NCBI GenBank assembly: GCA_037441565.1
Contig: JBBIRW010000003.1
Location: 12,953-76,952 of the forward strand
Reading direction: 5' to 3'
Source: Deltaproteobacteria bacterium
GTDB lineage: Bacteria > Desulfobacterota > JBBIRW01
Length of the DNA: 64,000 nt
Shown here: one piece after another, positions 34,803 through 51,395 of the stretch
How positions within the stretch are numbered: position 1 is the first letter of the stretch
Layout: every line of letters begins with the position of its first letter
Made by a program: the position numbers and the translations under genes
The notes under the pieces: generated by a model
Database searches by the model: none
What the model saw: only the letters and a program-made list of their open reading frames with translations
Told to the model about the DNA's origin: nothing

Positions 34803-34810
34803 TTTTTATC

Positions 34811-35686: not shown

Positions 35687-35723
35687 TTTCTCATCCCCTT
35701 TTATTAAATATCCTTAAAAATAC

Positions 35724-36887: not shown

Positions 36888-36890
36888 TCC

Positions 36891-37616
36891 CTACTCCTTT
36901 GAATGTAAAAGTGATATGAATATATCCTCAACTGTTTTATACCCGGACATCTTCAATTCTTCGGGCGATCCACAAACACGAATCATTCCATCATACATTA
37001 TCCCAATCCTGTTGCATTGCTCAGCCTCATCCATATGGTGGGTCGTAAGAAAAACTGTGGTTCCTTTATCAGATAGATCGTAAATGAGATCCCATATCCT
37101 CCTTCTCTCCTCAGGATCCATGCCCGCTGTTGGTTCATCAAGAAAAACGAGCTCCGGTTCATGGATTATTGCACATGCAAGGCCAAGGGATTGTCTTACA
37201 CCCGAAGGCAATGTTGATGCCTTATTCTTCCTGTATCCTTTAATATCCAGGAGTTCCAAAAGATACTCAACCCTATCCTTGAAACCTTCATAGCTCGAAT
37301 AATACAGACCCCAATAAAAATAGAGATTATCCTCAACATCCATATCCCTGTAAAATCCAAATCTCTGTGACATATACCCGATTCTTTTTCTTATCTCTTC
37401 TGCCTCTCTTTCTATATCAAATCCTAATACAAGACCCTTTCCCGAGGTTGGTCTTAGCAGACCGCATAACATCCTAACGGTTGTTGATTTCCCCGCACCA
37501 TTGGGACCAAGGAGGCCAAATATCTCTGCTCTTTTCACCTCGAGATCTACACCTTTTACAGCATAAAAATTTCCGAATTTCTTTGTGAGACCCTTTACAG
37601 AGATTTCAAGTTCCAT
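36891..37616 (-). CDS. ABC transporter ATP-binding protein
   Basis: Walker A GLLGPNGAGKST, ABC signature (LSGGMRQ-like ...PSGVRQSLGLA...) and Walker B VFLDEPT. Confidence 0.9.
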   Translation of the reverse strand: MELEISVKGLTKKFGNFYAVKGVDLEVKRAEIFGLLGPNGAGKSTTVRMLCGLLRPTSGKGLVLGFDIEREAEEIRKRIGYMSQRFGFYRDMDVEDNLYFYWGLYYSSYEGFKDRVEYLLELLDIKGYRKNKASTLPSGVRQSLGLACAIIHEPELVFLDEPTAGMDPEERRRIWDLIYDLSDKGTTVFLTTHHMDEAEQCNRIGIMYDGMIRVCGSPEELKMSGYKTVEDIFISLLHSKE

Positions 37617-37622
37617 ATCCCT

Positions 37623-38555
37623 TTATCTCTCAGATAAAGACCCTTCCTTCTTGAAGAAATTGAAAAGATCGCTAACAGAAAATTCACTACTGGTTATTAG
37701 AAAATCATCATAACCTTCTCCTCTCACATATTCAGCTATCCTATCACCATCATCTTTAGTTTCCACCCAGATATATATACTATCACCGGAAAGCCTCACG
37801 CCTTTTACAAAATCAAGTGATCGAAGTTTTTGTCCGATCTTCCCCGGCCTTCTGCATCTCATCACAAAAAGTTTACCAGCCATCCTTGATTTAAGATCAG
37901 AAAGAGATCCTGAAGCAATCAACCTGCCTCTGTGGAAAAAACCGATCCTGCTGAATTTATCAGCCTCCTCCATATAGGATGTTGAAATAATAAACGTTAT
38001 CCCCTCCCTGTGTAGTTCGTTCAAAAAACCCCATATATCCATCCGGGAAACAGGATCAAGACCTGTTGTCGGTTCATCCAGTAGAAGTAAGCCGGGTTTA
38101 TGAATAACCGCACAGGCAAGGGCAAGTTTCTGTTTCATCCCTCCTGAAAGGGAGCCTGATCGATGGTGGCGAAAGGATTTAAGTTTTGTTATCTCAAGGA
38201 GAAAAGATATCCACTCCTCGTTTCCCTTTTCCTGAACACCGTAGATAGATAAAAAGAATCTCAATAATTCACTAACTGTGAGATAATCATACAGATTTAC
38301 TCCCTGGGGAAGATAGCCTATGTTGCGCTTTATTGACTCCTCCTCCTCTAAAATATCTTTCCCAAAAATTTTTACACTTCCTTTTGTTGGCGATATTATA
38401 CCCGCAATAATCCTTAAAAGCGTTGACTTCCCTGCCCCATCAGGACCAATTAAGCCAAAAACCTCGTCTTTCTTTATGTCTAAATTTATTCCACGGAGTG
38501 CTTCATCCTCTCCAAAGCTCTTTGTTAGATTCGTGATTTCAACGATATTTACCAT
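37623..38555 (-). CDS. ABC transporter ATP-binding protein (second ATPase, with C-terminal extension)
   Basis: Walker A GLIGPDGAGKST, signature LSGGMKQKLALA, Walker B LLLDEPTTGLD and an extra C-terminal domain of about 80 aa. Confidence 0.9.
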   Translation of the reverse strand: MVNIVEITNLTKSFGEDEALRGINLDIKKDEVFGLIGPDGAGKSTLLRIIAGIISPTKGSVKIFGKDILEEEESIKRNIGYLPQGVNLYDYLTVSELLRFFLSIYGVQEKGNEEWISFLLEITKLKSFRHHRSGSLSGGMKQKLALACAVIHKPGLLLLDEPTTGLDPVSRMDIWGFLNELHREGITFIISTSYMEEADKFSRIGFFHRGRLIASGSLSDLKSRMAGKLFVMRCRRPGKIGQKLRSLDFVKGVRLSGDSIYIWVETKDDGDRIAEYVRGEGYDDFLITSSEFSVSDLFNFFKKEGSLSER

Positions 38556-38573
38556 ATCCTGATATGAGGATCT

Positions 38574-39563
38574 TTAGGGTTTGTATATGATCACATCAGC
38601 AGGCATGCCTGGCTTAAGGAGCATCTCCTTATTTTCCACCAGGATCTTTACCGAAAAAACAAGATGAACCCTTTCCTTCCGTGTTTGAATAAACTTGGGG
38701 GTAAATTCAGCCTTACCTCCAATTTCACTAACAATCCCATGAAAGATCCTTCCAGGGAATGAATCAACCATGATGTCAACCTTAGCCCCTATCATCACCC
38801 TTCCAATCTCATCCTCAGGGATAAATACCCTTACCCATGCATTTTCAATATCACCAATTACAGCCACTGGATAAAGGGGTGAGACCACCTCACCTTCATC
38901 CATGTTTTTAAGAAGAACAACACCCGATACAGGGCTTTCAAGTACTGCCTCATCGAGCTGCTTCCTCGCATATTTCAATGCTGCTTCAGCCTCTCTTACC
39001 CTTTCCCTTGCCTCTTCTATCTGGTATTTCCTTGAGCCCTCTTCAAGCAGTTTTAACTTCTCCTTTGCTTCTCTGACACGTGACTCAGCCTGATCAAGAA
39101 GTGTCTTTGCCTCATCCCTCTTCCTCTCAGGAATAACACCTTCCTCAAAAAGTGCCTTTGCCCTTTCAAATTCGTTCCTTGCAAACACAAAATCGGATTC
39201 TGCCCTCCTTAGTTCTGCCCTTGCCATTTCGATTTCCTGAATCCTAAAGCCTTCAAGAAGATCATTAAGGTATGCCCTTGCCCTCCTCAGGGCCGCCTCT
39301 GCCTCCTCCACCCTTGCCTTCAGCTCCTCATCATCAAGGGTGGCGAGGATCTGCCCTTTTTCAACCCTATCACCTTCTCTGAAGTTTATCTTCTTTATCC
39401 TTCCTGGAATTTTAAATGCAACTTCAACCTGCTTTACCTCCACAGTCCCTGTTGCCCTTAATGTGCTACTGTTCTCTTTAACCCATACCCTGTATGTCCT
39501 TATACCAAGGAGGAAAAAACCAGCTATGATGGCAATACTCGCATATATCCACTTACGTCTCAA
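38574..39563 (-). CDS. HlyD-family membrane fusion protein (YbhG-like)
   Basis: N-terminal TM segment, a biotin/lipoyl-like half, a long coiled-coil region and a beta-barrel C-terminus. The start codon is TTG (complement of caa at 39561-39563), preceded by a GGGAGGGG RBS. Confidence 0.85.
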   Translation of the reverse strand: MRRKWIYASIAIIAGFFLLGIRTYRVWVKENSSTLRATGTVEVKQVEVAFKIPGRIKKINFREGDRVEKGQILATLDDEELKARVEEAEAALRRARAYLNDLLEGFRIQEIEMARAELRRAESDFVFARNEFERAKALFEEGVIPERKRDEAKTLLDQAESRVREAKEKLKLLEEGSRKYQIEEARERVREAEAALKYARKQLDEAVLESPVSGVVLLKNMDEGEVVSPLYPVAVIGDIENAWVRVFIPEDEIGRVMIGAKVDIMVDSFPGRIFHGIVSEIGGKAEFTPKFIQTRKERVHLVFSVKILVENKEMLLKPGMPADVIIYKP

Positions 39564-39574
39564 AACCCCTCCCT

Positions 39575-40720
39575 TTAAACCTTAAATCTGAGAAGGGCAC
39601 CTATTTGAATGGGTTTATCGTTGTAATAGAAATCATAGTGGATCTCTTTTAGTTCACTCCCTGTGCTTATAGAGAGATTTACTGCATCATCAACAATATT
39701 TTCCCTCTCCTCCATCTCCTTTCTGCAGTAGGGGCATGCCTCCTGCCTCCACCAGATATAACCGCACTCCCTGCATATGGCACCCTTTTCCCTGTAGCCT
39801 TCACGCACGATGAGCAAGCGAACAGCCCCCTTCTGTATTGCGAAGAGCGTATTATCAAGTCCAAAACAACCAGGTCCCTTTGAGGAAACCTCTTTAAAAA
39901 TCTCATCCATAAGCCTTTTCTCTTCCGCCTTTCTTATCTCCTCCTCCACCGATCTCATGACCTCCTGCACCTGGGATACAGGTGCATTGATAGCCATATC
40001 CAGCCTTGCTGCAATCCGGCTTTTCAGGTTATTTGGAAGATGAAGCTCAAATTTGCTGATGAGTTTCTGATTCCCTCCAATGATCATATATTCAATATCC
40101 CGAATTTTGAAGAATTCAGAGACTGCATCACCAACCCTTTTAAGGTATCTCTGCAGGTGATCCTCTATGTGTCTCTCAATTCGTCTTTCCGCAAGTCCAT
40201 ACCATCCCGCCATCTTTACCTTTGATGGAACATCACTTAGCATGTGTGACTCTTCACTTATAATACCCATGTAGTAGTGGAATATACGGGATGCATCCCT
40301 GTCAAGGATTACCATCCCGAATCTATGATACCCATCCATCAGAAACATAAGCGGTTTAATAAAAGGCCTGCTATCAACAATCATCATATTTCTTACAGGT
40401 ACTGGAAGGCAAATTAATTCCCAGAGTCCAGCATTGCGAGATGAGAAAAGAACGAGACCTTTTGTTCCTTTTCTCTCAAATTTCCGTGTTACAAAATTAA
40501 GGGTATCCTGAAGCTCTTTTTCAATAATTAATCTCTTTTCCCTTTCAACCTCGAGTCTTTCCATCTCTTCCTTTTTCTCCTTTATCAATCCTTTGAGCAC
40601 GATTTCATACTCCTTTTTTGGATACAATTTCCCATCGACATTGAGATAAAGACTCACCACAGGGAAGCCTTTTGTATCCATTGAGATGATCTCTTTTACT
40701 TTCTGCAAAACATTAATCAT
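39575..40720 (-). CDS. bacterial eRF1/Pelota-like (baeRF-type) protein with C-terminal zinc ribbon; GGQ motif absent
   Basis: Central domain (HRFGMVILDRDASRIFHYYMG) and C-terminal domain (GPGCFGLDNTLFAIQKGAVRLLIV) follow the eRF1/Dom34 domain 2-3 pattern. A CRECGY...CPYC insert forms a Zn ribbon. The GGQ-loop position reads MAGWYG, so peptidyl-tRNA hydrolysis is not expected. Confidence 0.6.
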   Translation of the reverse strand: MINVLQKVKEIISMDTKGFPVVSLYLNVDGKLYPKKEYEIVLKGLIKEKKEEMERLEVEREKRLIIEKELQDTLNFVTRKFERKGTKGLVLFSSRNAGLWELICLPVPVRNMMIVDSRPFIKPLMFLMDGYHRFGMVILDRDASRIFHYYMGIISEESHMLSDVPSKVKMAGWYGLAERRIERHIEDHLQRYLKRVGDAVSEFFKIRDIEYMIIGGNQKLISKFELHLPNNLKSRIAARLDMAINAPVSQVQEVMRSVEEEIRKAEEKRLMDEIFKEVSSKGPGCFGLDNTLFAIQKGAVRLLIVREGYREKGAICRECGYIWWRQEACPYCRKEMEERENIVDDAVNLSISTGSELKEIHYDFYYNDKPIQIGALLRFKV

Positions 40721-40730
40721 AAAAAACCCC

Positions 40731-41459
40731 CTATTTAGCTCTGCCGTGATATATTGAAAACATCTCTTTCATGCGGATGGCATCTTCAAACATCGAGATA
40801 TTATTAAACATGAAATATCCTTCCTTAAAATCCTCTGTCATCTCAATGAGCTTCTTCAGATCACTATAAGTGTATTTATATCTGTACCCATCCCTTCCAT
40901 GCAATCGTAGATAGAATATTGAGAAGCCTGGAGGTATTGTTCTGAAAGGGTCCAGGCATGGGACTAAATCAAGTTCCCTGCATATATGGAAGATCTGCTC
41001 ATTTTCCCAGTATCCCCTTGGTTCCCAAACACATATTATCCCCTTCCTTTCGATCTTTCTGAAAAATCCTTTTAAATTTCTTATGCTCTCATCTGATGGA
41101 ATGAATGATGAAGAGGTCTGAAAAACAACAATCCGTGATGAAAGGACTTCAGCAATTTTTCTTACAACCTCCCACGCTTCAAAAACCTCGTCAGTATTCT
41201 GAAAATTTCCATATCTCCCCTTCTTACCCTCATCAATCCTTCTCTTTAATCTCCTGTATGTTGGGCTTGTGGGAGAATGGGTAATGAGCTGCCAGGCCTT
41301 TACAGTAAATTCAAAACCCTCAGGAACATCCTTTCTCCATTTCTCAATAGTTGAAAGACAAGGTGGATCATAGAAGATCTGCTGAACCTCAACAACATCA
41401 AGATACCTCACATACTTTTCCCTTGATACGGAAAAGCCACAACATCCAACCCTTATCAT
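40731..41459 (-). CDS. DUF72 (YecE/UPF0759) family protein
   Basis: TIM-barrel-like DUF72 pattern: N-terminal ...IRVGCCGFS..., ...FEFTVKAWQ..., ...YLRLHGR.... Confidence 0.75.
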   Translation of the reverse strand: MIRVGCCGFSVSREKYVRYLDVVEVQQIFYDPPCLSTIEKWRKDVPEGFEFTVKAWQLITHSPTSPTYRRLKRRIDEGKKGRYGNFQNTDEVFEAWEVVRKIAEVLSSRIVVFQTSSSFIPSDESIRNLKGFFRKIERKGIICVWEPRGYWENEQIFHICRELDLVPCLDPFRTIPPGFSIFYLRLHGRDGYRYKYTYSDLKKLIEMTEDFKEGYFMFNNISMFEDAIRMKEMFSIYHGRAK

Positions 41460-41905
41460 AAATCTTTATTCCTGGAAATGTCCTTTATAATTACAGATGC
41501 CTTAAGAATGATATCCCTTTCACTATCATAGTTCATAATCTTCACAGCCTCCTCAATTGGAAACCACCTTACCTCCTCAACCTCAAAGTCGTGATCCTCA
41601 ACACTTCCAGATAGATATTCAAGGAGATAGAAATGAACAGTTTTATTGATCTTGCTTTCGCTCTCCCTATCATAAAACCAGTAGTTTATCTCGCCTATCT
41701 TATCCACAATCCTTCCATCAAGTCCTGTTTCCTCTTTTACCTCCCTTGCGGCTGTCTTTTCAAGATCCTCTGATTCCTCAACGATCCCCTTTGGTAAGCA
41801 CCAGATCCTGCCACCTCCTCTGCGTATAAGGGCAATAAATACCCTCTCTCCTTCACTCCTGTATATGACACCTCCGGATGAGACTTGCTTTATAATTCTC
41901 CCCAT
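41456..41905 (-). CDS. NUDIX hydrolase
   Basis: Nudix box GIVEESEDLEKTAAREVKEETGL (Gx5Ex7REUxEExGU), 149 aa. Confidence 0.88.
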   Translation of the reverse strand: MGRIIKQVSSGGVIYRSEGERVFIALIRRGGGRIWCLPKGIVEESEDLEKTAAREVKEETGLDGRIVDKIGEINYWFYDRESESKINKTVHFYLLEYLSGSVEDHDFEVEEVRWFPIEEAVKIMNYDSERDIILKASVIIKDISRNKDL

Positions 41906-42975
41906 AGCGAACTCCTGCCAAGCTCTCTTCCAGAGCTACATATCTTTAATGAGCCCAGCTGAAGAAATCTTACCCTTGCTGGAATCTTCAGTGGTGTAAG
42001 TATATGAAATACACATCTTCTTATATCAAATTTTATCAATATTCCAAGGGCAATTGTATTTAAATGCCTGTCACTCAGACCAACAAGGAGATTTTCGAAA
42101 TCCTCTATTTCGTAAATCTCTAATTCATTAACAGAAAAGACATCCTTTATTCTGAAAAGATTTTCCCTGCTATAACCTCCCCTCGTGATTATGGTCATCC
42201 TGTTTGTCTTTCTTTCCGCATAGAGCACAGATGTTTCGAGTTCCCTCGATAGGAAGGAAAGGTCACTACTTGTAACCCTCTTCCCAATCCCAATTGTTGC
42301 ACCTATTATGGATATATCCTCGATGGGAAACTCCAGTTCTGATGCCATGGAAAAATATTCTCCAAACATCTTCTCCCTGTATGCCTTTCTTGCCTCCCTT
42401 TCCCTCTGTTTCACTGCCCCAACCGGTTTTAACTCATAGATCCTTAAATCCTCCATCTTCCTGAAAGGGTTCAAGATAGGCTCAAGCTCTCCATCATCAA
42501 TCACAACTATGTTTTCCGGTTTAATTACATCTATTTTGTACAGTTTAAGCGTCCTTGCTGCCCTTCCATGGATAAGACCTGATGTGTCAACAATAGTGTA
42601 TTCACAGCCAAGATAAGCTGACCTCTCCATAAGTGCCTTTACACCAGCAATGATAGGAACAAAGAATCCAACAGGTGAGGTGGAACCTATGAATCTGGTT
42701 CCCACACATCTGATTTCATATCTACCTTCCTGCTTCTTTCTTGCAAGTCCTAATGCTATTGTTGTGGGAAGACCGATTGACTGTTGACCGACATCTGTAT
42801 CGAGCAAACTTACACGCTCGCCTCGCATTGTAAGTTCATCAACGATAAACCTTGAGAGTGTGCTCTTTCCTGAATCGGTTTTTCCGAGAATTACAGTTGG
42901 ACCCCTTCTCTTTCTTATTTCAGAAACAAGATCGACCCATTCGGGCGGGATCAGAATTTTATCTCTCCTTTCCAT
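41890..42975 (-). CDS. Clp1/Grc3-family P-loop polynucleotide 5'-hydroxyl kinase-like protein
   Basis: Walker A GKTDSGKSTL followed by the Clp1-diagnostic LDxDxGQ motif (LLDTDVGQQSIGLP) and a Walker B-like IVDTSG. Overall Clp1 N-/central-/C-domain proportions at about 360 aa. Confidence 0.65.
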   Translation of the reverse strand: MERRDKILIPPEWVDLVSEIRKRRGPTVILGKTDSGKSTLSRFIVDELTMRGERVSLLDTDVGQQSIGLPTTIALGLARKKQEGRYEIRCVGTRFIGSTSPVGFFVPIIAGVKALMERSAYLGCEYTIVDTSGLIHGRAARTLKLYKIDVIKPENIVVIDDGELEPILNPFRKMEDLRIYELKPVGAVKQREREARKAYREKMFGEYFSMASELEFPIEDISIIGATIGIGKRVTSSDLSFLSRELETSVLYAERKTNRMTIITRGGYSRENLFRIKDVFSVNELEIYEIEDFENLLVGLSDRHLNTIALGILIKFDIRRCVFHILTPLKIPARVRFLQLGSLKICSSGRELGRSSLWGEL

Positions 42976-42993
42976 TTTAACTCACCTGAAATC

Positions 42994-44091
42994 TCAATAG
43001 GCATCGGAAAGCAGGTGAACATTTCCGATTCTAACCCTTCTTAATCCCTCTTCGTGGGCAACCTCCATGCATCTCTCCGCATGTGATCTTGATGTCCTCG
43101 GAAGATCTGTAAGATAAAACTGAGGATAGAATCCAAGAAGGGAATAAGGGATCTCAGGGTCAATAGAAGAGATAAAGCGTGCTATGGATCTTACCTCTTT
43201 TTCATCCACATATCCCGGAACAAGTAGTGTGCTTGCAATAAGCAAAGGAGGTTCCCTTCTCTTTTTAACAAATGATGCTGCAAAACGAAAATTCTCCAGG
43301 GTCTGATCATTATATGTATTGCACAGTGCCATATGGAGATTCTTATCCCATGCCTTTAAATCAAACTTCACACAACCTCCGCTATTAAGTGCAATATTCA
43401 TGATCTCTTCGAGAAAATCCTCCTTCATGGAACCATTCGTCTCCCAGCAGATCCTCAATATCCTCTCCCTCTTTCTCTTCAATGCAATCCTTGATGCTTT
43501 TATAGAATGGATGATCTGGGATGAAGGATCCCCACCAAAATAGCACACGCAGCTCGTTCTCTCATCGATAGCATCAACCAGCTCCTCTGCAGATATACCC
43601 TTTCCCTTTATGTCCATCCTTCTGAAATGCCAGTTCTGACAGAAAAGGCAGTTGAATGTGCATGCGTGATAGAAAACAGCAAGATTTTTATAACCTATTT
43701 CGGGTCCTTTTTTATAACAGAACTCGGGATAACCCGAGCCAGTCCCTCCTGGACATACCCAGTCAGCAACACAGTTTGTTGGGAGCGGATCATGATAGTA
43801 GCTAAGATAGCCTTCTCCTCCTCCCCTGAGATAACCATCTTCAAACCTCCTTATGCCGCAAAAACCCCTTTCACCTTCCGGGATGATACATCTGTTGCCA
43901 CAAAAATCACATTCCTTACCGCCAACCTTTGGGATCTCCTCTCTTAACCCAAATCTCCTTCTGCTTTCTCTATGCAGTTCGAAAATATCTTCTCTAATAT
44001 CGAAAGAACCTCCCCTTATACAATCCGCACAATATCCAAGAATAGATGAAATGGTCAATGAACGATTTTTACAACTTTTACATCTGCCCAC
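42994..44091 (-). CDS. radical SAM enzyme, pyruvate-formate-lyase-activase-like (AmmeMemoRadiSam/PflX-type) with N-terminal CxxC-CxxC zinc ribbon
   Basis: Radical SAM cluster motif CTFNCLFCQNW (Cx3Cx2C), a preceding C..C...G..G.CG.R element as in the PFL-AE-like subgroup, and an N-terminal CKSC...CADC. Confidence 0.75.
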   Translation of the reverse strand: MGRCKSCKNRSLTISSILGYCADCIRGGSFDIREDIFELHRESRRRFGLREEIPKVGGKECDFCGNRCIIPEGERGFCGIRRFEDGYLRGGGEGYLSYYHDPLPTNCVADWVCPGGTGSGYPEFCYKKGPEIGYKNLAVFYHACTFNCLFCQNWHFRRMDIKGKGISAEELVDAIDERTSCVCYFGGDPSSQIIHSIKASRIALKRKRERILRICWETNGSMKEDFLEEIMNIALNSGGCVKFDLKAWDKNLHMALCNTYNDQTLENFRFAASFVKKRREPPLLIASTLLVPGYVDEKEVRSIARFISSIDPEIPYSLLGFYPQFYLTDLPRTSRSHAERCMEVAHEEGLRRVRIGNVHLLSDAY

Positions 44092-44099
44092 TTATTTCC

Positions 44100-45368
44100 C
44101 TAAAAAAGCTTCATCTGTCTGTCATCACTTATCGGGACATCCTTTCCATGCTCACCTTCGTCATCCCATGCAATGGAAACCTTACCGTAAATACCATCAT
44201 AACCAGGGATTACTTTTACACAACCCTCCCTTACCTTTATAACGCCGGAATATATTTTTTGTGGAAGAAGCTTTGAAAGTTCTTCAGGGGTAAGGTTCAG
44301 AAGTATATTAAATTCCGATCCACATTGGGAGACTATTTTTCTATATTCCTTCTCAACCCTTTCTGTTCCCACACCAACCCCTAATGCATCTGCAATGATT
44401 TCCTCAAGCGGAATCAGATGCTTCGCAGGAATCGCGCCTTCTGGAGTATAGCCCTCGGGTCTGTCAGCAAGCTCCTCGACCCTGTGCATAACACCTATGG
44501 TTAATGGAGAATTACATACTGGACACCTGTTATTATACTTTCTACTCTCAGCAGGAGAAAGGGAAACCCCACAATTCCTGTGACCATCGAAATGGTATTT
44601 ACCTTCCTGGGGAAAGAACTCAATTGTAAAACGAAACTTATCCCTGGATTTCGTCTTTAAGGACTCCACAATATCCCTGTATGTAAGGGGGCAATTGAAA
44701 ACATTTGCCTCCCTTCCAATTCTCGATGGTGAATGGGCATCTGAATTAGAGATCAGGGTAATATTATCAAGTGCTGACAGACGCCAGTTCATCTGTGGAT
44801 CTGAGGAAAGACCTGTCTCAATGACCCTTATCAGATCTGCCTGATCCTCAAATGCCTCCTCAATGGAATCAAAACCGGAGAATGAACCGAAGAGGGAAAA
44901 CCAGGGTGTCCATACATGTGCAGGGATGATCATTGCATCAGGAGAGATATCGTAAACCATCTTTACCAGATCCTTTACAGGAAATCCGAACACCGGTCTT
45001 CCATCTGATCCGATCTTACCCATTCGTGAAAGCAATGAATTAAGTTTTTCAGCAGCTTCAAAGGATGGAAGGAAGATGATGCAGTGAACTTTTCTGAGCC
45101 TTCCACCACTTGAAAAGATGTTGCTAACCTCTCCTGTGAGCATGAATTTTACCGATGGATCACCCTTCTTTAATGAGAATAGCCCATTTCCCTCAGGTTT
45201 GAGCTTTCCCATCAATTCTGCAAAGTATGTTGGATGGGTAAAATCACCTGTTCCAAGAAGGTTTATCCCCTTCAGCTTTGCCCATTTCGCCATATTCTCC
45301 ACATCCATATCCCTGCTCGTTGCCCTGCTATACTTCGAATGGACATGAAAATCCGCAATAATCCTCAT
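44100..45368 (-). CDS. endonuclease Q-like PHP-domain nuclease (TIGR00375-type) with C4 zinc finger
   Basis: PHP motifs (DFHVHSKYS; GTGD; PAHVWTPW; SNSDAHSP), a CPVC...C zinc finger and C-terminal VIPGYDGIYGKV. Length 422 aa fits EndoQ. Confidence 0.7.
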   Translation of the reverse strand: MRIIADFHVHSKYSRATSRDMDVENMAKWAKLKGINLLGTGDFTHPTYFAELMGKLKPEGNGLFSLKKGDPSVKFMLTGEVSNIFSSGGRLRKVHCIIFLPSFEAAEKLNSLLSRMGKIGSDGRPVFGFPVKDLVKMVYDISPDAMIIPAHVWTPWFSLFGSFSGFDSIEEAFEDQADLIRVIETGLSSDPQMNWRLSALDNITLISNSDAHSPSRIGREANVFNCPLTYRDIVESLKTKSRDKFRFTIEFFPQEGKYHFDGHRNCGVSLSPAESRKYNNRCPVCNSPLTIGVMHRVEELADRPEGYTPEGAIPAKHLIPLEEIIADALGVGVGTERVEKEYRKIVSQCGSEFNILLNLTPEELSKLLPQKIYSGVIKVREGCVKVIPGYDGIYGKVSIAWDDEGEHGKDVPISDDRQMKLF

Positions 45369-45407
45369 GAAAACCCCCTTTTGAACATTACATGTTTCCC
45401 TTTCTGG

Positions 45408-45662
45408 CTATTCAATAACCCTGTAGACAAGATCAGAAGGTCTTACCCTCTCACTGACCTTTATCCCCACGAGATCCCCCTCTGATGCTGTTTCTACATT
45501 CTGGTGTTCAATCTGCATGGACTCAACCCTCTGCACAAAGTCAGTGGTGTTTCCCTGAAAATGGAGGGAGTCCCCTAACCTTATAGAACCCTTTGTAATC
45601 TTTACTGCTGCAACCCCTATCTTTGCAAAATATTTAACAACCTCTCCAACCTTTTCTTCCAT
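45408..45662 (-). CDS. small EF-Tu-domain-II-like beta-barrel protein (hypothetical)
   Basis: 84 aa with the G.V..G.I..GD.L......V.S.......V..A..GD.VGI pattern typical of translation-GTPase domain 2 barrels. Lies between the EndoQ and PolX genes. Confidence 0.4.
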   Translation of the reverse strand: MEEKVGEVVKYFAKIGVAAVKITKGSIRLGDSLHFQGNTTDFVQRVESMQIEHQNVETASEGDLVGIKVSERVRPSDLVYRVIE

Positions 45663-45683
45663 AAAAACCTCCTGATTCAGGTT

Positions 45684-47402
45684 TTATCTCCCTCTCGAGG
45701 TCCTCTTAATAAGTTCATTAAGAGGGAGGGTATTCAATACATCATCCTTTGTCAGCCAGCCTCTCCTCGCTACAGCTATACCAAATTCCATCAGTTCAAG
45801 ATGATTTATAATATGTGCATCCGTATTTATACAAAGCTTTACCCCTAACTCTTTTGCCCTCCTTGAGAGGATATCATTTAAATCCATCCTCTGAGGGTAA
45901 GCATTTACCTCAAGCGAAATATCTCTCCTCTTTGCCTCTTTCATAATAAGGTCGAAGTCCAGCTCATAAGCCTCCCTTTCTCCAATAAGCCTTCCAGTGG
46001 GATGGGCTATGATATTTACATAGGGGTTAGACATGGCATTCAGGATCCTTTTTGTAAGAATCTCTTTTCCTGCCTTGAACCCATAATGGATCGATGCAAT
46101 AACTATATCAAGCTTCTTTAGAACCTCATCAGGTAGATCAAGTGATCCATCTCCGAGGATGTCAACCTCAATCCCTTTAAGTATCTTTATCTTTGATTTC
46201 TTATTGAGCCTTTCAATCTCCTCTATCTGGTCCATAACTTCCTCTGGTCCCATCCCCCTTGCAATCCCAAGGGATTTTGTGTGATCTGCTATCGCTATAT
46301 ACTCGTAACCCTTTTTTTCTGCATATCTGGCAATCTCCTCTATATCATGAGCACCATCACTCCATTTAGAGTGTATGTGGAGATCTCCTCTTATATCAGA
46401 TAGTTCAATAAGCTGAGGAAGTCTTCCTTCGGCTGCTGCCTCAATCTCCCCCTGGTCCTCCCTTAATTCCGGTGAAATCCATTTGAGTCCGAGCGCACTG
46501 TAAACCTCATCCTCCTCCTTTCCCGCGATCTTTTTCCCTGTTTTTTCATCAAAAACGCCATATTCACTTATTTTCAGGCCCAGCCTATCTGCTATCTGTC
46601 TTAGGTGTATATTATGATTCTTTGATCCTGTGAAATACTGAAGCGCTGCACCGAAACTTTCAGGTTCAACGACCCTCAGATCAACCTGAAGCCCATCATG
46701 GGTAAGCACGCTGGACTTTGTTGAACCCTTGGCAAGCACATCAGCGACATAGGGAAGAGAAACGAAATGATCCATAATCTTTTTTGGATCATGGGAAATT
46801 ATGAGTATATCCACATCCTTTATGGTTTCTTTCATCCTCCTTAAACTCCCCGCTATATTTAATCTCTTTACCTCTTTGAGCGAAAGTAGTGCCTTTTCAA
46901 ACTCCCTGGCAATGGGAAGAACCCTTCCAAGGGGCATCCTCTCCCTCCCCTTTTTATAAAGCTCTATACCCTTTCTGATATTCTCCTCGGTTTTTTCCCT
47001 TATCCCTGGAAGTTTACACAGCTTGTGACTTTTTGCAGCCTCCTCCAGTTCTTCTATAGTTTTTATCCCAAGGGATTCATATATAAGCTTTGCAGTCTTT
47101 GGTCCAAGACTGGGTATGGAGAGCATCTGCACAAGTCCTCTGGGTATCTCCTTTTTCAGCTTCTCATAATCCTCAAATGTCCCTCTTTCTATGATCTCAA
47201 CGATCTTCTGTGCGAGGTCTTTGCCTATACCCGGAATCTTTGTAAGCTCGCCCCTTTTGGAAATATCCTCTATATTCTCCGTAAGATTTTCTATATTCTG
47301 GGCTGCCTTCCGGTAGGCTCTGATTCTGAAAGGGTTTTCATCTTTGATTTCGAGGAGATCAGCAACATCGTTGAATATCCTTGCAATTTCCATGTTTCTC
47401 AT
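45684..47402 (-). CDS. DNA polymerase X (Pol-beta-like polymerase + C-terminal PHP 3'-5' exonuclease/AP endonuclease domain)
   Basis: N-terminal 8-kDa/HhH domain (IARIFNDVADLLEIKDENPFRIRAYRKAA), Pol-beta palm (GS.RR..E...D.DIL) and C-terminal PHP motifs (DLHIHSKWSDG, ADH). Confidence 0.92.
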   Translation of the reverse strand: MRNMEIARIFNDVADLLEIKDENPFRIRAYRKAAQNIENLTENIEDISKRGELTKIPGIGKDLAQKIVEIIERGTFEDYEKLKKEIPRGLVQMLSIPSLGPKTAKLIYESLGIKTIEELEEAAKSHKLCKLPGIREKTEENIRKGIELYKKGRERMPLGRVLPIAREFEKALLSLKEVKRLNIAGSLRRMKETIKDVDILIISHDPKKIMDHFVSLPYVADVLAKGSTKSSVLTHDGLQVDLRVVEPESFGAALQYFTGSKNHNIHLRQIADRLGLKISEYGVFDEKTGKKIAGKEEDEVYSALGLKWISPELREDQGEIEAAAEGRLPQLIELSDIRGDLHIHSKWSDGAHDIEEIARYAEKKGYEYIAIADHTKSLGIARGMGPEEVMDQIEEIERLNKKSKIKILKGIEVDILGDGSLDLPDEVLKKLDIVIASIHYGFKAGKEILTKRILNAMSNPYVNIIAHPTGRLIGEREAYELDFDLIMKEAKRRDISLEVNAYPQRMDLNDILSRRAKELGVKLCINTDAHIINHLELMEFGIAVARRGWLTKDDVLNTLPLNELIKRTSRGR

Positions 47403-47455
47403 GGTTTCACCATGAATAGATTATACTACGGCTTTTCTCCTCCATAAAGTTTCCC

Positions 47456-48676
47456 CTAACAAACAGGAAATCTCCCATCTAAAAGCATCTCGCAGAATGA
47501 CCCTATACGGGAAAGTTCTTCATCGATTATATGCTCACAGCTTCTCGATATCTTTTTAAAACTCACCCGATCCTTCTTCAATATCTGTGCCGATGCGATC
47601 TTCGGCCGATCAATGGGAGAGCCGATCTGACTGCATAACCACACATATACCTCCCTTATTCCATCCACCTCCTTATATATCCTGTTTGCAATCTGGTGGG
47701 CAAGGATATTGTATATCTTTCCCACATGACTTACAGGATTTTTCCCAGCAGCTGCCTCTGCGCCCGTAGGCCTGTTCAGGGCAATTATCCCGTTTACCCT
47801 GTTCCCCCTCCCAACCTGACCTGAATCTGCATCCTCAGCTGAGGTCCCAAGGACGCTCAAATATACCCCTTCAACCCCCCTCCCTTTCCTGTCAAGGGTA
47901 TTGAAGTACAGGTTGGTATTTCTGAAGTAGCCTTTATTTGAAAGGGTAAAGTTTTTTATTTCCCTCATTACAACCCTCTTTCTCTCGAAATAATATGCCT
48001 CATTCTCGATAAATCTATCTATGAAAGGCATGGCAATGGTAAGGTGGATATCCCTCCCCTCCCTGAACCCCATAACTTTTACATCTTCACCCGTTTCAGG
48101 AAACTTGTTTTTGAACTCTGAAGAATTAAGGAATCTCTCGATCTCCAGAACAAGCTTTTCCGTTGGTGTAAGTGGCGCATAACCAATAGCAGCTGATGTA
48201 TCATTTGATCCATACAATCCCTTCCTGTCCTTTTTGAATATAGATGTAAGTTCCGATGATCCCGGCTTCAACTCAACTTGGTAACGGACATGCTCTTCAG
48301 GATCAACAAACCTCAAATTCTTTCTTATCCAGTCCTTTGCAGTTTCAACTGCAATCTCCTCCACTGCTATCACTTTTCCATCCACCCTGACCGTTGCCCT
48401 ATCACCTATGATAATCTTCATAGGCTCTATAACCCTTCCACCACCAAATCTTCTCTCCACACCACCTGCAACAAGAAGCCCCTTGTCTATGTTAAAATGG
48501 CATATACTCCCTGTGATCCGTAAATACTCGCGCGAAAGTGCCCTTGAGACCTCCTCCATTATGGAATCACATATGAAATCAGGATGACCAAGACCCTTGC
48601 GCTCAACTATCTCAACCTTCTGTTCTTCGATCGGGATTGACTTCAGCTCTTCCACAATTATCTTCCTTATACTCAT
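47456..48676 (-). CDS. archaeal-type S-adenosylmethionine synthetase (methionine adenosyltransferase, PF01941 class)
   Basis: ERKGLGHPDFICDSI, GYAPLTPTEKLVLEIERFLNS and GTSAEDADSGQVGRGNRVNGII...GKNPVSHVGKIYN are near-identical to archaeal MAT signatures. The start is trimmed to ATG 48676 (MSIRKIIVEE), which has a GGAGAGGGG RBS. Confidence 0.9.
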   Translation of the reverse strand: MSIRKIIVEELKSIPIEEQKVEIVERKGLGHPDFICDSIMEEVSRALSREYLRITGSICHFNIDKGLLVAGGVERRFGGGRVIEPMKIIIGDRATVRVDGKVIAVEEIAVETAKDWIRKNLRFVDPEEHVRYQVELKPGSSELTSIFKKDRKGLYGSNDTSAAIGYAPLTPTEKLVLEIERFLNSSEFKNKFPETGEDVKVMGFREGRDIHLTIAMPFIDRFIENEAYYFERKRVVMREIKNFTLSNKGYFRNTNLYFNTLDRKGRGVEGVYLSVLGTSAEDADSGQVGRGNRVNGIIALNRPTGAEAAAGKNPVSHVGKIYNILAHQIANRIYKEVDGIREVYVWLCSQIGSPIDRPKIASAQILKKDRVSFKKISRSCEHIIDEELSRIGSFCEMLLDGRFPVC

Positions 48677-48833: not shown

Positions 48834-50204
48834 CTATAAACCCCTTATTTTCTTTTTCAAGTCCCTCAGCAGGTCAATATCCCACCCTGACTTTCTACAG
48901 CATAGTATGGAATTGTTATGAAAGAGGGGCTCCTCCTCAATGGGAAATGGTGATGCAGCAACAGCCTCTTTCCACATCTCTGTTCCAGGAATGGGTGAGT
49001 ATTCAACAAGTATCGGTTTTGCACCGCAGGTATGAACGAATATGGCCGTATCGAGAACCTCATGGGAGCGCTGTCCTGGAAGACCGCACATTATATAAAC
49101 CCCTATATCATCCCTCCTGTATCCAGCTTTTCTAAGGGATTTTACACAATCAATGAATTCACTCTCCGTTACCTTCGCTCCTTCTCTTTCATGCCACTCA
49201 TCATCCTTTACCTCAAATCCAAGTCTTATGGTTTTGAATCCTGAAAGATAAAGTAACCGAGCAACCTCCTCATCTATAAACCTTATATGAAGCCCGTTGG
49301 GACAGTGAAACCTGAGTTGAAGATTCTTCTTGATTATCTCTTTGAGTAATGGGACAAAATATTCATATGCATTAACAAGGAGCGCATCGTCGTAGAACAC
49401 AAAATCAAGGCAGCCAAATCTGTTATGCCAGTAAAGGACCTCCTTTAAAACATTCTCAGGTGTTCTTCTTTTAAATGAAGGAAAGAGCATATTGGAGGCA
49501 CAGTAAGAACATTGGAATGGGCAGCCTCTCGAGGTCAGGATAGTAACATAATCGATCCTTTTCAAAAGATCAAAGGCGGGGTATGGAAGGGTTTCCGGTG
49601 AAAGCGCATCGGGAACAAAATCGGGTTCGAACTTGAATAACCCCTTAATTACTTGCAAAATTTCATTTTCACCATAGCCCTTAATAACATAATCAGCCCC
49701 GGAATATTTGAGTGCATGCTCATGGCAGAGTGTCGCATATATTCCACCCAGTACCACAGGTATCCCTGGAAAGTTCCTCTTAAGGATTGATATAGCTTCA
49801 AAAACACCCTGATACCAGTATGTCATCCCTGATGTGACAAGGATGAGATCAGGTGGAGGGGAGATACTTAACTCCCTGAGAAACAGGTCCTCCGGATAAC
49901 CAAACCTCTTGTACCTCCTTGGTATCGATGAAAGCTTTTCGGGCTTCTTCGCTTCAGTCCAGAAGAACTCTCCTCTGCCGTCAAACCTTCTCTTAATCGG
50001 TTTTCTCCTATAAAGCCCCAAGCAGGGATGGTGTACATCCAGTGCATCTATAAGGGTGATTGCAAAGCCATTCTCTCTTAAAATGGATGCAATATAAAGA
50101 AGGCCAAGGGGTTTTGCCCAGAGATCAAAGTAAGAAAAATCGTAAACCCATGGATTGATCAGAAGGACATGCCTTTTGCCTTCCATCCCTATAAATGTTA
50201 TCAT
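48834..50204 (-). CDS. B12-binding-domain radical SAM enzyme (class B)
   Basis: N-terminal cobalamin-binding Rossmann domain (VLLINPW...LGLLYIASILRENG) and a radical SAM core (TSRGCPFQCSYCAS). The start is trimmed to ATG 50204 (MITFIG) or 50186 (MEGKRH); the longer track ORF would overlap dtd. Confidence 0.82.
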   Translation of the reverse strand: MITFIGMEGKRHVLLINPWVYDFSYFDLWAKPLGLLYIASILRENGFAITLIDALDVHHPCLGLYRRKPIKRRFDGRGEFFWTEAKKPEKLSSIPRRYKRFGYPEDLFLRELSISPPPDLILVTSGMTYWYQGVFEAISILKRNFPGIPVVLGGIYATLCHEHALKYSGADYVIKGYGENEILQVIKGLFKFEPDFVPDALSPETLPYPAFDLLKRIDYVTILTSRGCPFQCSYCASNMLFPSFKRRTPENVLKEVLYWHNRFGCLDFVFYDDALLVNAYEYFVPLLKEIIKKNLQLRFHCPNGLHIRFIDEEVARLLYLSGFKTIRLGFEVKDDEWHEREGAKVTESEFIDCVKSLRKAGYRRDDIGVYIMCGLPGQRSHEVLDTAIFVHTCGAKPILVEYSPIPGTEMWKEAVAASPFPIEEEPLFHNNSILCCRKSGWDIDLLRDLKKKIRGL

Positions 50205-50235
50205 TCCATAAATATAATATAAACGGGTTGCAGAA

Positions 50236-50685
50236 TTGAGGGCAGTTGTCCAGAGGGTGAAAAGGGCTGAAGTGAGGGTTAATGGAGTCATTTGTGGTTC
50301 CATAGGGAAGGGGCTTGTTGTTCTTATTGCAATCGGAAGGGAAGATGGGGATGAAGATATAAGCTATATGGTTTCAAAAATATTGAATCTGAGAATCTTT
50401 GAGGATGAACAGGGGAAGATGAATCTCTCACTCAAAGATATCTCAGGGGAACTCCTCATTGTCTCCCAATTCACACTATATGGCGATTGTAGAAAGGGAA
50501 GAAGACCCAATTTCCTTGAAGCTGCACCGCCAGAGCAAGCACTACTTCTTTACAGCAGATTTATAGATGAAATAAGAAAAGAGGGATTCGACCCAAAACA
50601 GGGTGAATTCCAGAAGATGATGGAGCTTGAGCTTGTAAATGATGGTCCTGTTACCATCCTTCTTGACAGCAAAAGGATATTCTAA
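50236..50685 (+). CDS. dtd: D-aminoacyl-tRNA deacylase
   Basis: SQFTLY motif and Gly-cisPro-like region of Dtd, 149 aa. The initiation codon at 50236 is TTG. Confidence 0.88.
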
Positions 50686-51365
50686 AGCTCTAACTCCTCA
50701 CCTGGTTTCAGAATTATGCACTTTGTTTCCGTTCCTGCTATCTTTTCAGAAAATCTCTCTGGATCAGCCTTTATAATATCAAATGTATCGTAGTGCATCG
50801 GTATAACAAAAGCTGGTTTCAGCATTTTTACTGCCTCAGCTGCATCATCGATACCCATTGTGAAGTTATCACCTATTGGTATCATAGCGAGATCAATCTT
50901 TTTACTCCTTCCCAGAAGCTCCATATCGCCGAAAAGACCTGTATCTCCAGGATGATAGATCCTTTTACCTCCGATCTCGATCAGGAAGCCACAGGGATTG
51001 CCCGTATACTCTATCGTATCCCCGACGACTGCTGAACCATGAAGTGCAGGTGTCAATTTAACCATTCCAAAATCAAATTTGAAACTTCCACCTATGTGCA
51101 TCGGATGAACCTTTGCACCCTGCCTCTGGCAATACATAGCAAGCTCAAAAGGTGCAATTATCGTTGCATCAGTCCTTTTTGCAATAGGAATTGCATCGCC
51201 AAGATGATCCCCATGACCGTGTGTAACAAGTATGTACTGAACACTTATATCTTCCATCTTCATAGCCGCCTTTGGATTTCCGGTGATGAATGGATCTATT
51301 ACAATCCTGTAATTGTTGTGGGTTATGAGGAAGGCTGCATGGCCGATAAATTTTACCTTTGGCAT
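50682..51365 (-). CDS. metallo-beta-lactamase-fold metal-dependent hydrolase (UPF0173-like)
   Basis: HxHxDH motif ([11 protein letters not shown]) plus downstream His/Asp ligands, 227 aa. Confidence 0.8.
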
Positions 51366-51395
51366 TATCTCCCCCTTTCTTTATTCAGGAAGCAA

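Follow-up and report, generated by a model that had tools for sequence, protein, structure and literature searches.

A recurrent endonuclease Q neighbourhood within a nine-gene block of an uncultured Thermodesulfobacteriota bacterium: a candidate DNA-lesion repair cluster

Introduction

Do nine closely spaced bacterial genes with an archaeal flavour form one functional system, and were they acquired together? The question is raised by nine successive open reading frames, all on the minus strand, at positions 39575-48676 of the window, a stretch of 64,000 nucleotides of ordinary chromosomal DNA from an uncultured Thermodesulfobacteriota bacterium. An earlier note on this DNA had described the layout and assigned each gene to a family. 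The open reading frames were found as described, with an inter-gene spacing of -16 to +53 nt, and all nine family calls were reproduced by matches to profile and structure databases:

39575..40720, minus strand: baeRF family 10 protein (PF18854); outside the recurrent cluster
40731..41459, minus strand: DUF72 TIM-barrel protein (PF01904); core cluster member
41456..41905, minus strand: Nudix hydrolase, Ap4A-hydrolase-like (PF00293); lineage-specific insertion
41890..42975, minus strand: Clp1-family polynucleotide 5'-hydroxyl kinase (PF16575); peripheral cluster member
42994..44091, minus strand: radical SAM (rSAM) enzyme, PFL-activase-like (PF04055); core cluster member
44100..45368, minus strand: endonuclease Q (EndoQ) homologue, PHP-domain lesion-specific endonuclease (PfuEndoQ match); core cluster member
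45408..45662, minus strand: EF-Tu-domain-2-like beta-barrel protein, 84 aa (PF03144); core cluster member
45684..47402, minus strand: bacterial PolX, pol-beta-like core and PHP domain (NF006375); Clp1-associated in some lineages
47456..48676, minus strand: archaeal-type methionine adenosyltransferase, MAT (PF01941); outside the recurrent cluster

Some of these families are rare in bacteria: Clp1 has been reported in 0.9% of bacterial species (PMC6777427), and reports of EndoQ are likewise confined to a limited set of bacteria (PMC5961232). Our comparative analysis revealed that only the middle five or six of the nine genes form a recurrent cluster, which is found in other anaerobic bacteria, and that three others, encoding the SAM synthetase, the Nudix protein and the eRF1-like factor, adjoin it in this lineage only. 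The open-access literature searched contained no paper describing this cluster or naming three or more of its families together.

Results

Genomic setting of the nine genes

The view of the nine genes as a distinct unit did not hold. They are embedded in a run of 40 successive minus-strand genes (21260-63674; median gap 11 nt), and the tight spacing extends past the block. By the limit of 55 nt used in the earlier note itself, the tight run comprises 15 genes (33702-48676) and takes in six unrelated ones, encoding HlyD, two ABC ATPases, an ABC permease, CcsB and a 366-aa protein, which represent an efflux ABC transporter and cytochrome c biogenesis. The 366-aa protein is without a family match in the window, and its counterpart in the related locus L001 is ResB (PF05140). 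Outside the block, 65% of the gaps are also no longer than 55 nt. Scans of the region for consensus promoters and terminators returned matches no better than those in shuffled sequence. The cluster genes may be co-transcribed.

Recurrent gene neighbourhood

Neighbourhoods were compared across 160 homologous loci, or 159 after removal of the window itself (79 Clp1-anchored genome loci and 80 rSAM-anchored metagenome loci), with at most 10 kb, and often much less, surveyed on either side. The comparison revealed a same-strand cluster of variable content that consists of the EF-Tu-domain-2-like barrel, the PFL-activase-like rSAM enzyme, EndoQ and DUF72, with DUF763, DUF488, a second rSAM gene and a Clp1-type kinase as frequent further members. 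It was seen in at least five diverged lineages, in permuted gene order and with varying accessory genes, and the loci that carry it represent at least five rSAM clades with a mutual identity of only 54-62%. At the 79 Clp1-anchored loci the rSAM gene was encountered 8 times, EndoQ and DUF72 7 times each, the barrel and DUF763 6 times each, DUF488 5 times and PolX 3 times; the 80 rSAM-anchored loci yielded the barrel 8 times, DUF488 7, EndoQ 5, and DUF72 and DUF763 4 times each. With one randomly placed copy assumed per 3-Mb genome, chance would give about 0.2-0.4 hits per family. The counts for five families lie at least 10-fold above this expectation, and the Poisson figures overstate the significance, because loci of one clade are not independent. 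The recurrence of five genes in diverged bacteria in different orders argues for a functional link among these repair-type genes.

Partners were absent, within flanks of at most 10 kb and often far less, from 68 of the 79 Clp1 loci and about 60 of the 80 rSAM loci; the link is therefore facultative. Clp1 was found at none of the 80 rSAM-anchored loci, and the remaining neighbours of both anchor genes are lineage-specific housekeeping genes. Conservation as a cluster thus applies to the barrel, rSAM, EndoQ and DUF72 genes, joined in some loci by DUF763, DUF488 or Clp1, and does not apply to the Nudix, baeRF10 and MAT genes, none of which lies near the Clp1 or rSAM gene in the 159 non-self loci. 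These three adjoin the cluster only in two close relatives of the window. The functionally linked system proposed in the earlier note therefore stands in part: the barrel, EndoQ, rSAM, Clp1 and DUF72 genes recur together, whereas the eRF1-like, Nudix and MAT genes do not. Likewise, from the suggested combination of Clp1, Nudix and rSAM genes, Clp1 occurs with rSAM at 8 of the 79 Clp1-anchored loci and the Nudix gene at none of the 159. The suggested combination of baeRF with DUF72 was not seen at the four baeRF10-anchored loci, which carry none of the other genes from the nine-gene block.

EndoQ homologue

The alignment of the window EndoQ with PfuEndoQ (5zb8; E 1.7e-53) spans the full length of the protein. 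Within it all six Zn ligands of the PHP domain (H8, H10, E76, H84, H139 and D193) are identical, and H195, T142 and W144 are likewise conserved (residue list from PMC5961232). With these ligands and the lesion-pocket residues, the protein resembles the enzymes of EndoQ-initiated alternative excision repair in Pyrococcus furiosus and Bacillus pumilus. It differs from the characterised enzymes at the C4 Zn site (Cys249, Cys252, Cys268, Cys271), which reads H-C-C-C with His at the Cys249 position and could still bind Zn, and in its TIGR00375 score of 194.7 bits, below the cut-off of 326.6. On sequence grounds it belongs to a diverged bacterial branch of the family, and orthologues with 52-62% identity are present at 12 non-self cluster loci. 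Furthermore, no dedicated gene cluster has been reported for the characterised EndoQ enzymes, whereas the window protein is encoded together with rSAM, barrel, DUF72, Clp1 and PolX genes.

Clp1 kinase and PolX

Clp1 (PF16575, 120.7 bits against a cut-off of 26.6; PDB matches 8hmy and 4ohv) carries complete Walker A, Walker B, clasp and lid motifs. Alignment A2 shows the Walker A sequence GKTDSGKST, DxD-GQ, DT(S/T)G and the lid arginines to be invariant (G31, D34, G36, K37, T39, D59, D61, Q64, D130, T131, G133, R196 and R200). The short bacterial form and these conserved motifs are shared with Ts-Clp1 of Thermus scotoductus, the sole bacterial Clp1 characterised by assay, which prefers ssRNA over ssDNA (PMC6777427). 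Ts-Clp1 has no known genomic partners, in contrast to the window Clp1 and about 14% of the sampled loci, where EndoQ, DUF72, rSAM or PolX is nearby; DUF72, EndoQ or the rSAM gene shares the locus with Clp1 in 11 of 79 cases.

PolX (equivalog NF006375, 605 against a cut-off of 426) possesses both the DVD...D palm triad and the DLHIHS motif of the PHP domain. It lies adjacent to or near Clp1 in three further loci (L010-L012; 56-57% identity), so that the pairing is limited to a few lineages, namely these and that of the window. A polymerase with intact palm triad and PHP motifs is paired here with a 5'-OH polynucleotide kinase, much as mammalian Pol beta is with PNKP, and bacterial PolX has its own PHP domain for cleaning 3' ends. 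A division of labour as in single-strand break and base-excision repair is predicted, in which gaps are filled, 3' ends cleaned and 5' ends phosphorylated. Unlike in the Pol beta/PNKP system, the kinase is of the Clp1 family and not of the T4 or PNKP type, and scaffold and ligase are not encoded.

Radical SAM enzyme and its barrel partner

The rSAM enzyme (PF04055, 51 bits) comes closest to the PFL-activase (PFL-AE) and AmmeMemoRadiSam types in core sequence and fold, and it remains far under their cut-offs (TIGR04337, 77.6 against 220; TIGR02493, 43 against 232). Its AF2 model (pLDDT 84) has PFL-AE 3c8f as top PDB match (TM 0.73 on target), and its CxxxCxxC motif (C144/C148/C151) is invariant in the alignment. 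It further differs from both types by a unique Cys-rich N-terminal extension of 130 aa with two extra Cys clusters (CxxC..CxxC, then CxxCxxxC..C) and by the lack of their partner genes, as a glycyl-radical enzyme, AMMECR1 and Memo are absent both from the window and from the neighbour families that recur across the 160 loci. More than 7000 homologues share about 57-62% identity. The size and high conservation of the family, often amid housekeeping genes, suggest a role broader than lesion repair.

The barrel protein (PF03144, 33 bits against a cut-off of 30.3) belongs to a family of 2431 cluster representatives. Orthologues with 48-63% identity are encoded beside the rSAM gene at 14 loci other than the window, and in most other loci the barrel gene is located directly upstream of it. 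Several family members are fused to TIR domains or to Lys-rich histone-H1-like tails, and these cationic tails argue for nucleic-acid association.

DUF72 and Nudix proteins

DUF72 (PF01904, 102 bits) has orthologues with 44-53% identity at 7 Clp1-anchored and 4 rSAM-anchored loci. The literature relates its fold to UV-damage endonuclease, assigns it no function, and finds DUF72 genes over-represented around DNA-damage-inducible PolB2 operons (PMC11791011). The Nudix gene overlaps its neighbours on both sides. Its product (PF00293, 83 bits) contains a complete Nudix box, GIVEESEDLEKTAAREVKEETGL (consensus GX5EX7REUXEEXGU), has Aquifex Ap4A hydrolase as top PDB match (3i7u; E 3e-25) and falls nearest to the Ap4A-hydrolase/RppH group.

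Independent neighbours: baeRF10 and MAT

The baeRF10 protein (PF18854, baeRF_family10, 93 bits against a gathering cut-off of 27.1, with an additional eRF1_3 match) shows the three-domain aeRF1 architecture, aligns over its full length with Balon and eRF1, and has Balon MSMEG_1130 as top PDB match (8v9j; full length, E 2e-12). A CxxC..CxxC ribbon lies within its C-terminal domain. For baeRF family 10, a conserved catalytic Gln in the GGQ-equivalent loop was reported by Burroughs and Aravind (PMC6514570). In the window protein Trp occupies the aligned position: the loop M-A-G-W-Y-G, aligned to the eRF1 GGQ by eye, reads AGW, and G-W is found there in most of 21 aligned relatives. Homologues elsewhere have unrelated neighbours; an HPF-like gene adjoins two of four, and heat-shock and stress genes are nearby. 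In architecture, top match and these HPF-like neighbours the protein resembles the hibernation factors Balon and baeRF-1. It differs from Balon in missing all NCBIfam RHF family cut-offs (81.6/480, 66/330 and 37/320) and in its position beside DUF72 and an efflux system, with no HPF neighbour. The baeRF10 protein is probably a Balon-like, non-catalytic protein of ribosome hibernation or rescue that is independent of the cluster.

MAT scored 561.7 bits against PF01941 (cut-off 27) and 661.7 against NF003363 (cut-off 557). It is preceded by 157 nt, the sole sizeable gap of the run, with a 10/12 promoter-like site inside it (in a scan at shuffle level), and upstream of it lie a B12-radical SAM gene, speE and speH. 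It is read as a neighbour independent of the cluster that would supply SAM beside SAM-consuming and polyamine genes. The earlier note took the lack of bacterial MetK as a hint that MAT may be the only SAM synthetase of the cell; this absence concerns the 64-kb window and has no bearing on the rest of the genome.

Discussion

The gene identities, the conserved catalytic motifs and the recurrent co-localisation in permuted order are established. On balance, and with moderate confidence, we favour the reading of a DNA-lesion repair cluster that is facultative and centred on EndoQ, that has here been combined with PolX and Nudix genes, and that is flanked by independent genes. It most probably serves DNA repair that starts from the lesion ('alternative excision') in anaerobes. 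We infer DNA as the substrate, and the order of steps may be the following. EndoQ would nick 5' of deaminated or abasic bases, PolX would fill gaps and clean 3' ends by its PHP domain, and the Clp1 kinase would restore 5'-phosphates. DUF72, as a UVDE-like TIM barrel, might also cut at lesions or process ends, the rSAM enzyme with its small nucleic-acid-associated barrel might act on the lesion or a partner protein by SAM-dependent radical chemistry, and a housekeeping ligase would complete the repair. Intact catalytic motifs in EndoQ, PolX, Clp1, Nudix and rSAM speak for this proposal, as do the recurrence above chance in diverged clades, the cationic tails in the barrel family, the setting of DUF72 near PolB2 operons and the lack of a PADLOC defence signature; the lack of a ligase gene in the cluster speaks against it. 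Further points against it are the missing Clp1 at rSAM-anchored loci, the RNA preference of Ts-Clp1, the facultative linkage and the size and conservation of the rSAM family.

The neighbourhood connects EndoQ, a characterised lesion endonuclease, with uncharacterised families, namely a very large and highly conserved rSAM family, a small EF-Tu-domain-2-like barrel, DUF72, DUF763 and DUF488, and with Clp1, which is rare in bacteria. Should this linkage prove functional, it provides testable hypotheses for several DUFs and bacterial Clp1 and points to anaerobe-specific DNA repair chemistry. The failure of the nine-gene 'system' as a unit is a useful correction of the previous reading.

A more specific proposal, which we regard as possible and rather doubtful, is that the barrel, rSAM, DUF763, EndoQ, DUF72 and DUF488, sometimes with Clp1 and PolX, constitute an unrecognised rSAM-dependent DNA-lesion repair pathway of strict anaerobes, in which the rSAM enzyme would reverse or process a base lesion. 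The analogy behind it is spore photoproduct lyase. If true, such a pathway would assign a function to Clp1, rare as it is in bacteria, and to three DUF families of long standing.

It is unlikely that the block serves RNA repair and translation quality control, with Clp1, Nudix, the EF-Tu-domain-2-like barrel and the eRF1-like factor acting on damaged RNA and stalled ribosomes. Here Clp1 would be an RNA 5'-kinase and the Nudix protein an RppH/Ap4A-like 5'-end pyrophosphohydrolase. The ssRNA preference of Ts-Clp1, the nearest relatives of the Nudix enzyme and the translation-factor fold of the barrel fit such a role, as do the baeRF10-DUF72-Nudix-Clp1 adjacency conserved in the close relatives L001 and L007 and the rescue roles proposed by Burroughs and Aravind for baeRF-1 proteins in RNA-damage conflicts. 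However, baeRF10 and Nudix are missing from every other cluster-bearing locus, the four baeRF10-anchored loci are without any partner, and the partners conserved beside Clp1 act on DNA or are linked to DNA repair (EndoQ, PolX, and DUF72 by its UVDE-like fold); moreover, RNA ligase, RtcB and Hen1 are not present, and the window baeRF10 has AGW in place of GGQ.

Coincidental juxtaposition of unrelated leading-strand genes in a compact genome, with recurrence due to shared ancestry of a few related lineages, also appears improbable. The 40-gene co-directional run with its short gaps, its continuation into transporter and cytochrome c biogenesis genes and the missing partners at most homologous loci are what coincidence would produce, but the association extends over at least five clades of 54-62% mutual identity, permuted order and varying accessory genes are not expected of inherited synteny alone, and five families are at least 10-fold over random expectation.

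Still less probable is a DNA-modification or anti-phage conflict system, with a modified base introduced or taken out by the rSAM enzyme and with EndoQ and DUF72 as nucleases that depend on the modification. DUF5131 is a phage-associated family, and the second rSAM gene of the cluster resembles it; TIR fusions of the barrel domain in other proteins and the variable, mix-and-match composition point the same way. Against this, a PADLOC search gave no meaningful defence matches, the rSAM, EndoQ and barrel proteins evolve slowly (55-62% identity across clades), unlike typical defence genes, and the setting is one of chromosomal housekeeping genes in which a methyltransferase or restriction partner is absent.

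Recent insertion of a horizontally acquired 'archaeal' island, suggested by the mainly archaeal or eukaryotic distribution of Clp1, EndoQ, PF01941 MAT and the aeRF1 fold, is highly improbable: block composition and codon usage match the contig and therefore give no sign of recent acquisition (GC 0.423 within the block and 0.411 elsewhere; codon-usage distance 0.136 and 0.129, p = 1.0; tetranucleotide correlation 0.969 within the contig's own range of 0.959-0.983), no tRNA, integrase or repeats were detected, and flanking synteny is kept in a relative whose Clp1 shares just 75% identity. The 'archaeal flavour' of the earlier note holds as a description of family distribution and fails for the closest homologues, almost all of which, among those listed, carry bacterial labels; the single archaeon-labelled rSAM match among them comes from a bacterial-looking contig.

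The nine-gene string and its setting

Nine consecutive minus-strand genes at 39575-48676, as described in the earlier note, were reproduced together with every family name by our ORF listing and by Pfam and NCBIfam searches, the intergenic gaps in the ORF listing ranging from -16 to +53 nt.

Genes of the nine-gene string
39575-40720, minus strand: baeRF_family10 protein (baeRF10; PF18854, 93 bits)
40731-41459, minus strand: DUF72 protein (PF01904, 102 bits)
41456-41905, minus strand: Nudix protein, Nudix box complete
41890-42975, minus strand: CLP1_P kinase (Clp1; PF16575, 121 bits)
42994-44091, minus strand: PFL-AE/AmmeMemoRadiSam-like radical SAM enzyme (rSAM), scoring under both families' cut-offs
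44100-45368, minus strand: EndoQ homologue, with Pyrococcus furiosus EndoQ (PfuEndoQ) matched over its full length
45408-45662, minus strand: 84-aa EF-Tu-domain-2 barrel (PF03144, 33 bits)
45684-47402, minus strand: PolX (equivalog, 605 bits)
47456-48676, minus strand: archaeal-type methionine adenosyltransferase (MAT; 662 bits, exceeding the cut-off)

The proposal that these nine genes are a distinct unit was not borne out, the limits of the string being arbitrary and close packing continuing beyond the block. In the window ORFs the string lies among 40 minus-strand genes in a row (21260-63674), the run of gaps of at most 53 nt starts at MAT and reaches 33702, taking in HlyD, two ABC ATPases, a permease, CcsB and lastly a 366-aa gene, and gaps of at most 55 nt make up 65% of those outside the block. 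Close same-strand packing is thus a property of the genome, not of the block. The 366-aa gene is without a family match in the window, and its counterpart in L001, one of the two close relatives of the window, is ResB. Promoter and terminator consensus scans returned counts equal to those of shuffles, so that transcription units are not definable from them. The 40-gene stretch combines purine-rich coding strands with a strongly negative GC skew of about -0.2 to -0.35, consistent with a long leading-strand segment of a compact genome.

The suggestion of a horizontally acquired block likewise found no support. Its GC content (0.423 vs 0.411 elsewhere), synonymous codon distance (0.136 vs 0.129 elsewhere, p = 1.0) and tetranucleotide correlation (0.969, within the 0.959-0.983 range of other 9-kb windows) are not deviant, on which ground recent transfer was rejected, and L001 (Clp1 75% identical) is syntenic across both the block and the downstream flank. 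The flanks are bacterial (HlyD, GGDEF, CcsB, Crp/Fnr), no tRNA genes, RNA families or mobile-element signature were found in the window, and the second close relative, L007, is a 94%-identical locus of an uncultured Thermodesulfobacteriota MAG.

Two further features of the minus-strand run were observed. Beginning 11 nt after baeRF10, an HlyD-type adaptor, two ABC ATPases and a permease (35724-39563, minus strand) look like a split RbbA-like efflux system, judging from the match of the ATPases and permease to successive segments of the RbbA 'ribosome-associated ATPase/transporter' model, which is a single polypeptide. A patatin-like phospholipase (29172-30284, minus strand), flanked by a Crp/Fnr regulator on one side and a GAF-PAS-GGDEF protein on the other, weakly matches the CBASS cGAMP-activated phospholipase (46 bits vs a cut-off of 200) and an anti-phage phospholipase, with no cyclase seen nearby.

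A smaller cluster recurs in other lineages

Homologous loci (L-numbers) were collected by a genome scan anchored on the Clp1 kinase, with a 7-sequence Clp1 alignment as query (80 loci, L007-L086), and by a metagenome scan anchored on the rSAM enzyme (80 loci, L087-L166); window proteins were searched against six-frame ORFs of each locus and extra families were named by Pfam. Partner genes are absent in most of the 160 loci, and a same-strand cluster is present in a distinct subset.

Gene order in loci carrying the cluster or parts of it
Syntrophobacterales / Thermodesulfobacteriota (L040, L043, L053, L065; partial in L052, L059, L083): barrel > rSAM > DUF763 > EndoQ > DUF72 > Clp1 > second rSAM > DUF488
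Metagenome clade (L113, L131, L155, L159, L161, L162, L165; whole or partial): barrel > rSAM > (DUF763) > EndoQ > (DUF72) > (DUF488)
Brocadiales (L025): DUF72 > Clp1 > rSAM > NTPase_1
Single locus (L098): rSAM > EndoQ
Two loci (L068, L069): DUF72 > Clp1
Six loci (e.g. L092, L141, L157, L160): rSAM with DUF488

PolX adjoins Clp1 in L010 and L011 and lies 2.4 kb away in L012. The window order (PolX > barrel > EndoQ > rSAM > Clp1 > Nudix > DUF72 > baeRF10) is unlike that of every other locus group, and DUF763, DUF488, the second rSAM gene and NTPase_1 were not found elsewhere in the window. Identity to the window proteins in the other loci amounts to 48-63% for the barrel, 52-62% for EndoQ, 54-59% for rSAM, 44-53% for DUF72 and 27-40% for Clp1, and at least five rSAM clades, 54-62% identical to each other, bear the cluster. 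Chance alone would give about 0.2-0.4 occurrences per family, a generous estimate in that one copy is assumed per 3-Mb genome; 4-8 per family were observed (Poisson P 1e-4 to 1e-10) and 3 for PolX (P 7e-3), figures that are upper bounds on significance because same-clade loci are not independent. The permuted gene order across clades is a stronger argument for association than the counts. Other recurrent neighbours of rSAM (NusB, FabD/ACP, YceD) and of Clp1 (sigma-54 activators, ABC exporters, S49 peptidase) are lineage-specific and functionally unrelated. An 'archaeon'-labelled rSAM homologue (P0079) was set aside, its contig being bacterial-looking and partner genes absent.

The recurrent unit is a cluster of five to eight genes, probably for repair. 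The larger nine-gene system proposed earlier, with the eRF1-like protein (baeRF10), Nudix and MAT, did not hold up: these three lie beside the cluster in the two close relatives only and in 0/159 other loci (the window itself excluded). Each part of the cluster is a known family. Bacterial Clp1 (PMC6777427) and EndoQ (PMC5961232) are rare among bacteria, no partners for either were described in the literature searched, and no earlier paper treating at least three of DUF72, Clp1, radical SAM, EndoQ and PHP together in this sense was found in the open-access literature searched. The interest of the cluster is moderate and lies mainly in its tying a characterised lesion endonuclease, EndoQ, to several uncharacterised families.

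In Candidatus Brocadia (L002/L003 8268-11077; also L013, L018, L063) a Clp1-type kinase gene begins on the last base of recJ (1-nt overlap), another DNA-end-processing pairing; limited to this genus and hence to one lineage, it was discounted as evidence for the cluster.

Proposed role in DNA-lesion repair

An EndoQ-centred DNA-lesion repair cluster is the best-supported reading of the region. The EndoQ homologue conserves all Zn ligands (H8, H10, E76, H84, H139, D193), plus H195, and keeps the PfuEndoQ pocket residues T142, W144, E167, G169, L170 and N191; in its C4 site, His replaces the first Cys. In PolX the DVD...D palm triad is present, as are the PHP motifs, and the Clp1 kinase motifs are intact. 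DUF72 is a TIM barrel akin to UV-damage endonuclease and enriched near damage-inducible PolB2 operons (PMC11791011). The identities, motifs and co-localisation are observed, and DNA as the substrate, co-transcription and the order of steps are inferred. In this reading EndoQ would cut 5' of deaminated or abasic bases, PolX would fill gaps and clean 3' ends, Clp1 would add phosphate to 5'-OH ends, DUF72 would serve as a second lesion nuclease or as an end nuclease, rSAM and the barrel would contribute a radical step of unspecified kind, and a housekeeping ligase would seal the product.

The repair reading is weakened by the facultative link within the cluster, by the absence of Clp1 from the 80 rSAM-anchored loci and by the preference of Thermus scotoductus Clp1 for RNA (PMC6777427). 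Furthermore, the wide spread of the rSAM family among housekeeping genes hints at a broader role. This family has more than 7000 members, the best 120 listed of which are about 57-62% identical, with an invariant CxxxCxxC motif and an N-terminal extension bearing CxxC..CxxC and CxxCxxxC..C motifs. In the AF2 model (pLDDT 84) PFL-activating enzyme is the top fold match; the fold search returned generic radical SAM cores only, and no match for the N-terminal 130 aa. The public gene call (P0062, 354 aa) leaves out the first 11 codons, counted from the GTG at 44091, and is probably too short, since the longer form includes the first CxxC (C4, C7), invariant across the family.

The barrel family (2431 representatives; single-sequence AF2 model of the 84-aa window protein, pLDDT 49) includes several homologues with long Lys/Ala/Pro-rich histone-H1-like tails, which argue for association with nucleic acid, and others that begin with TIR domains at the N-terminus, in most cases ahead of two barrels (P0260, P0277, P0278, P0281, P0299, P0306 and P0316 exemplify the fusions). 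Judging from the TIR fusions, the barrel could serve conflict systems as a sensing or targeting module; a PADLOC search for defence systems gave no credible match.

Genes outside the recurrent cluster

MAT is preceded by a 157-nt gap, the sole sizeable one of the run, with a 10/12 promoter-like site of a kind whose scan counts equal those of shuffles; searches of the window, and of the sequence upstream of MAT, gave no Rfam family, SAM riboswitches included. Directly upstream (48834-52707, minus strand) lie genes for a B12-binding radical SAM protein, an MBL-fold hydrolase, spermidine synthase (speE) and SAM decarboxylase (speH), and the his operon is upstream as well. This neighbourhood of SAM-producing and SAM-consuming genes may explain the location of MAT. 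The nearest solved match of the Nudix protein is Aquifex Ap4A hydrolase (3i7u, E 3e-25).

The baeRF10 family is small (79 clusters), and none of the partner genes lies near four diverse homologues (L167-L170). The top solved match of the window protein, over its full length, is the ribosome hibernation factor Balon (8v9j, E 2e-12). At the eRF1 GGQ position, aligned by eye, its loop reads A-G-W, and G-W in most relatives, which makes peptidyl hydrolase activity doubtful. Immediately upstream of two of the four homologues is a gene that weakly matches S30AE/HPF and sigma-70 region 4, and GroES/EL, HSP20 or ArsA-HSP20 lie nearby; these neighbours agree with the HPF association reported for baeRF-1 families (PMC6514570). 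In L167 (4987-5979) and L169 (4657-5670) a single protein of about 330 aa joins the two weakly matching domains; such a fusion is unusual, and the protein may regulate or partner the baeRF10 family. A DUF4931/GalT-like gene (HIT-superfamily nucleotidyl transferase) lies directly downstream of the baeRF10 homologue in L168 (7153-8193), followed by another radical SAM gene, and also two genes upstream of the recurrent cluster in L043 (2855-3844), which may be a coincidence.
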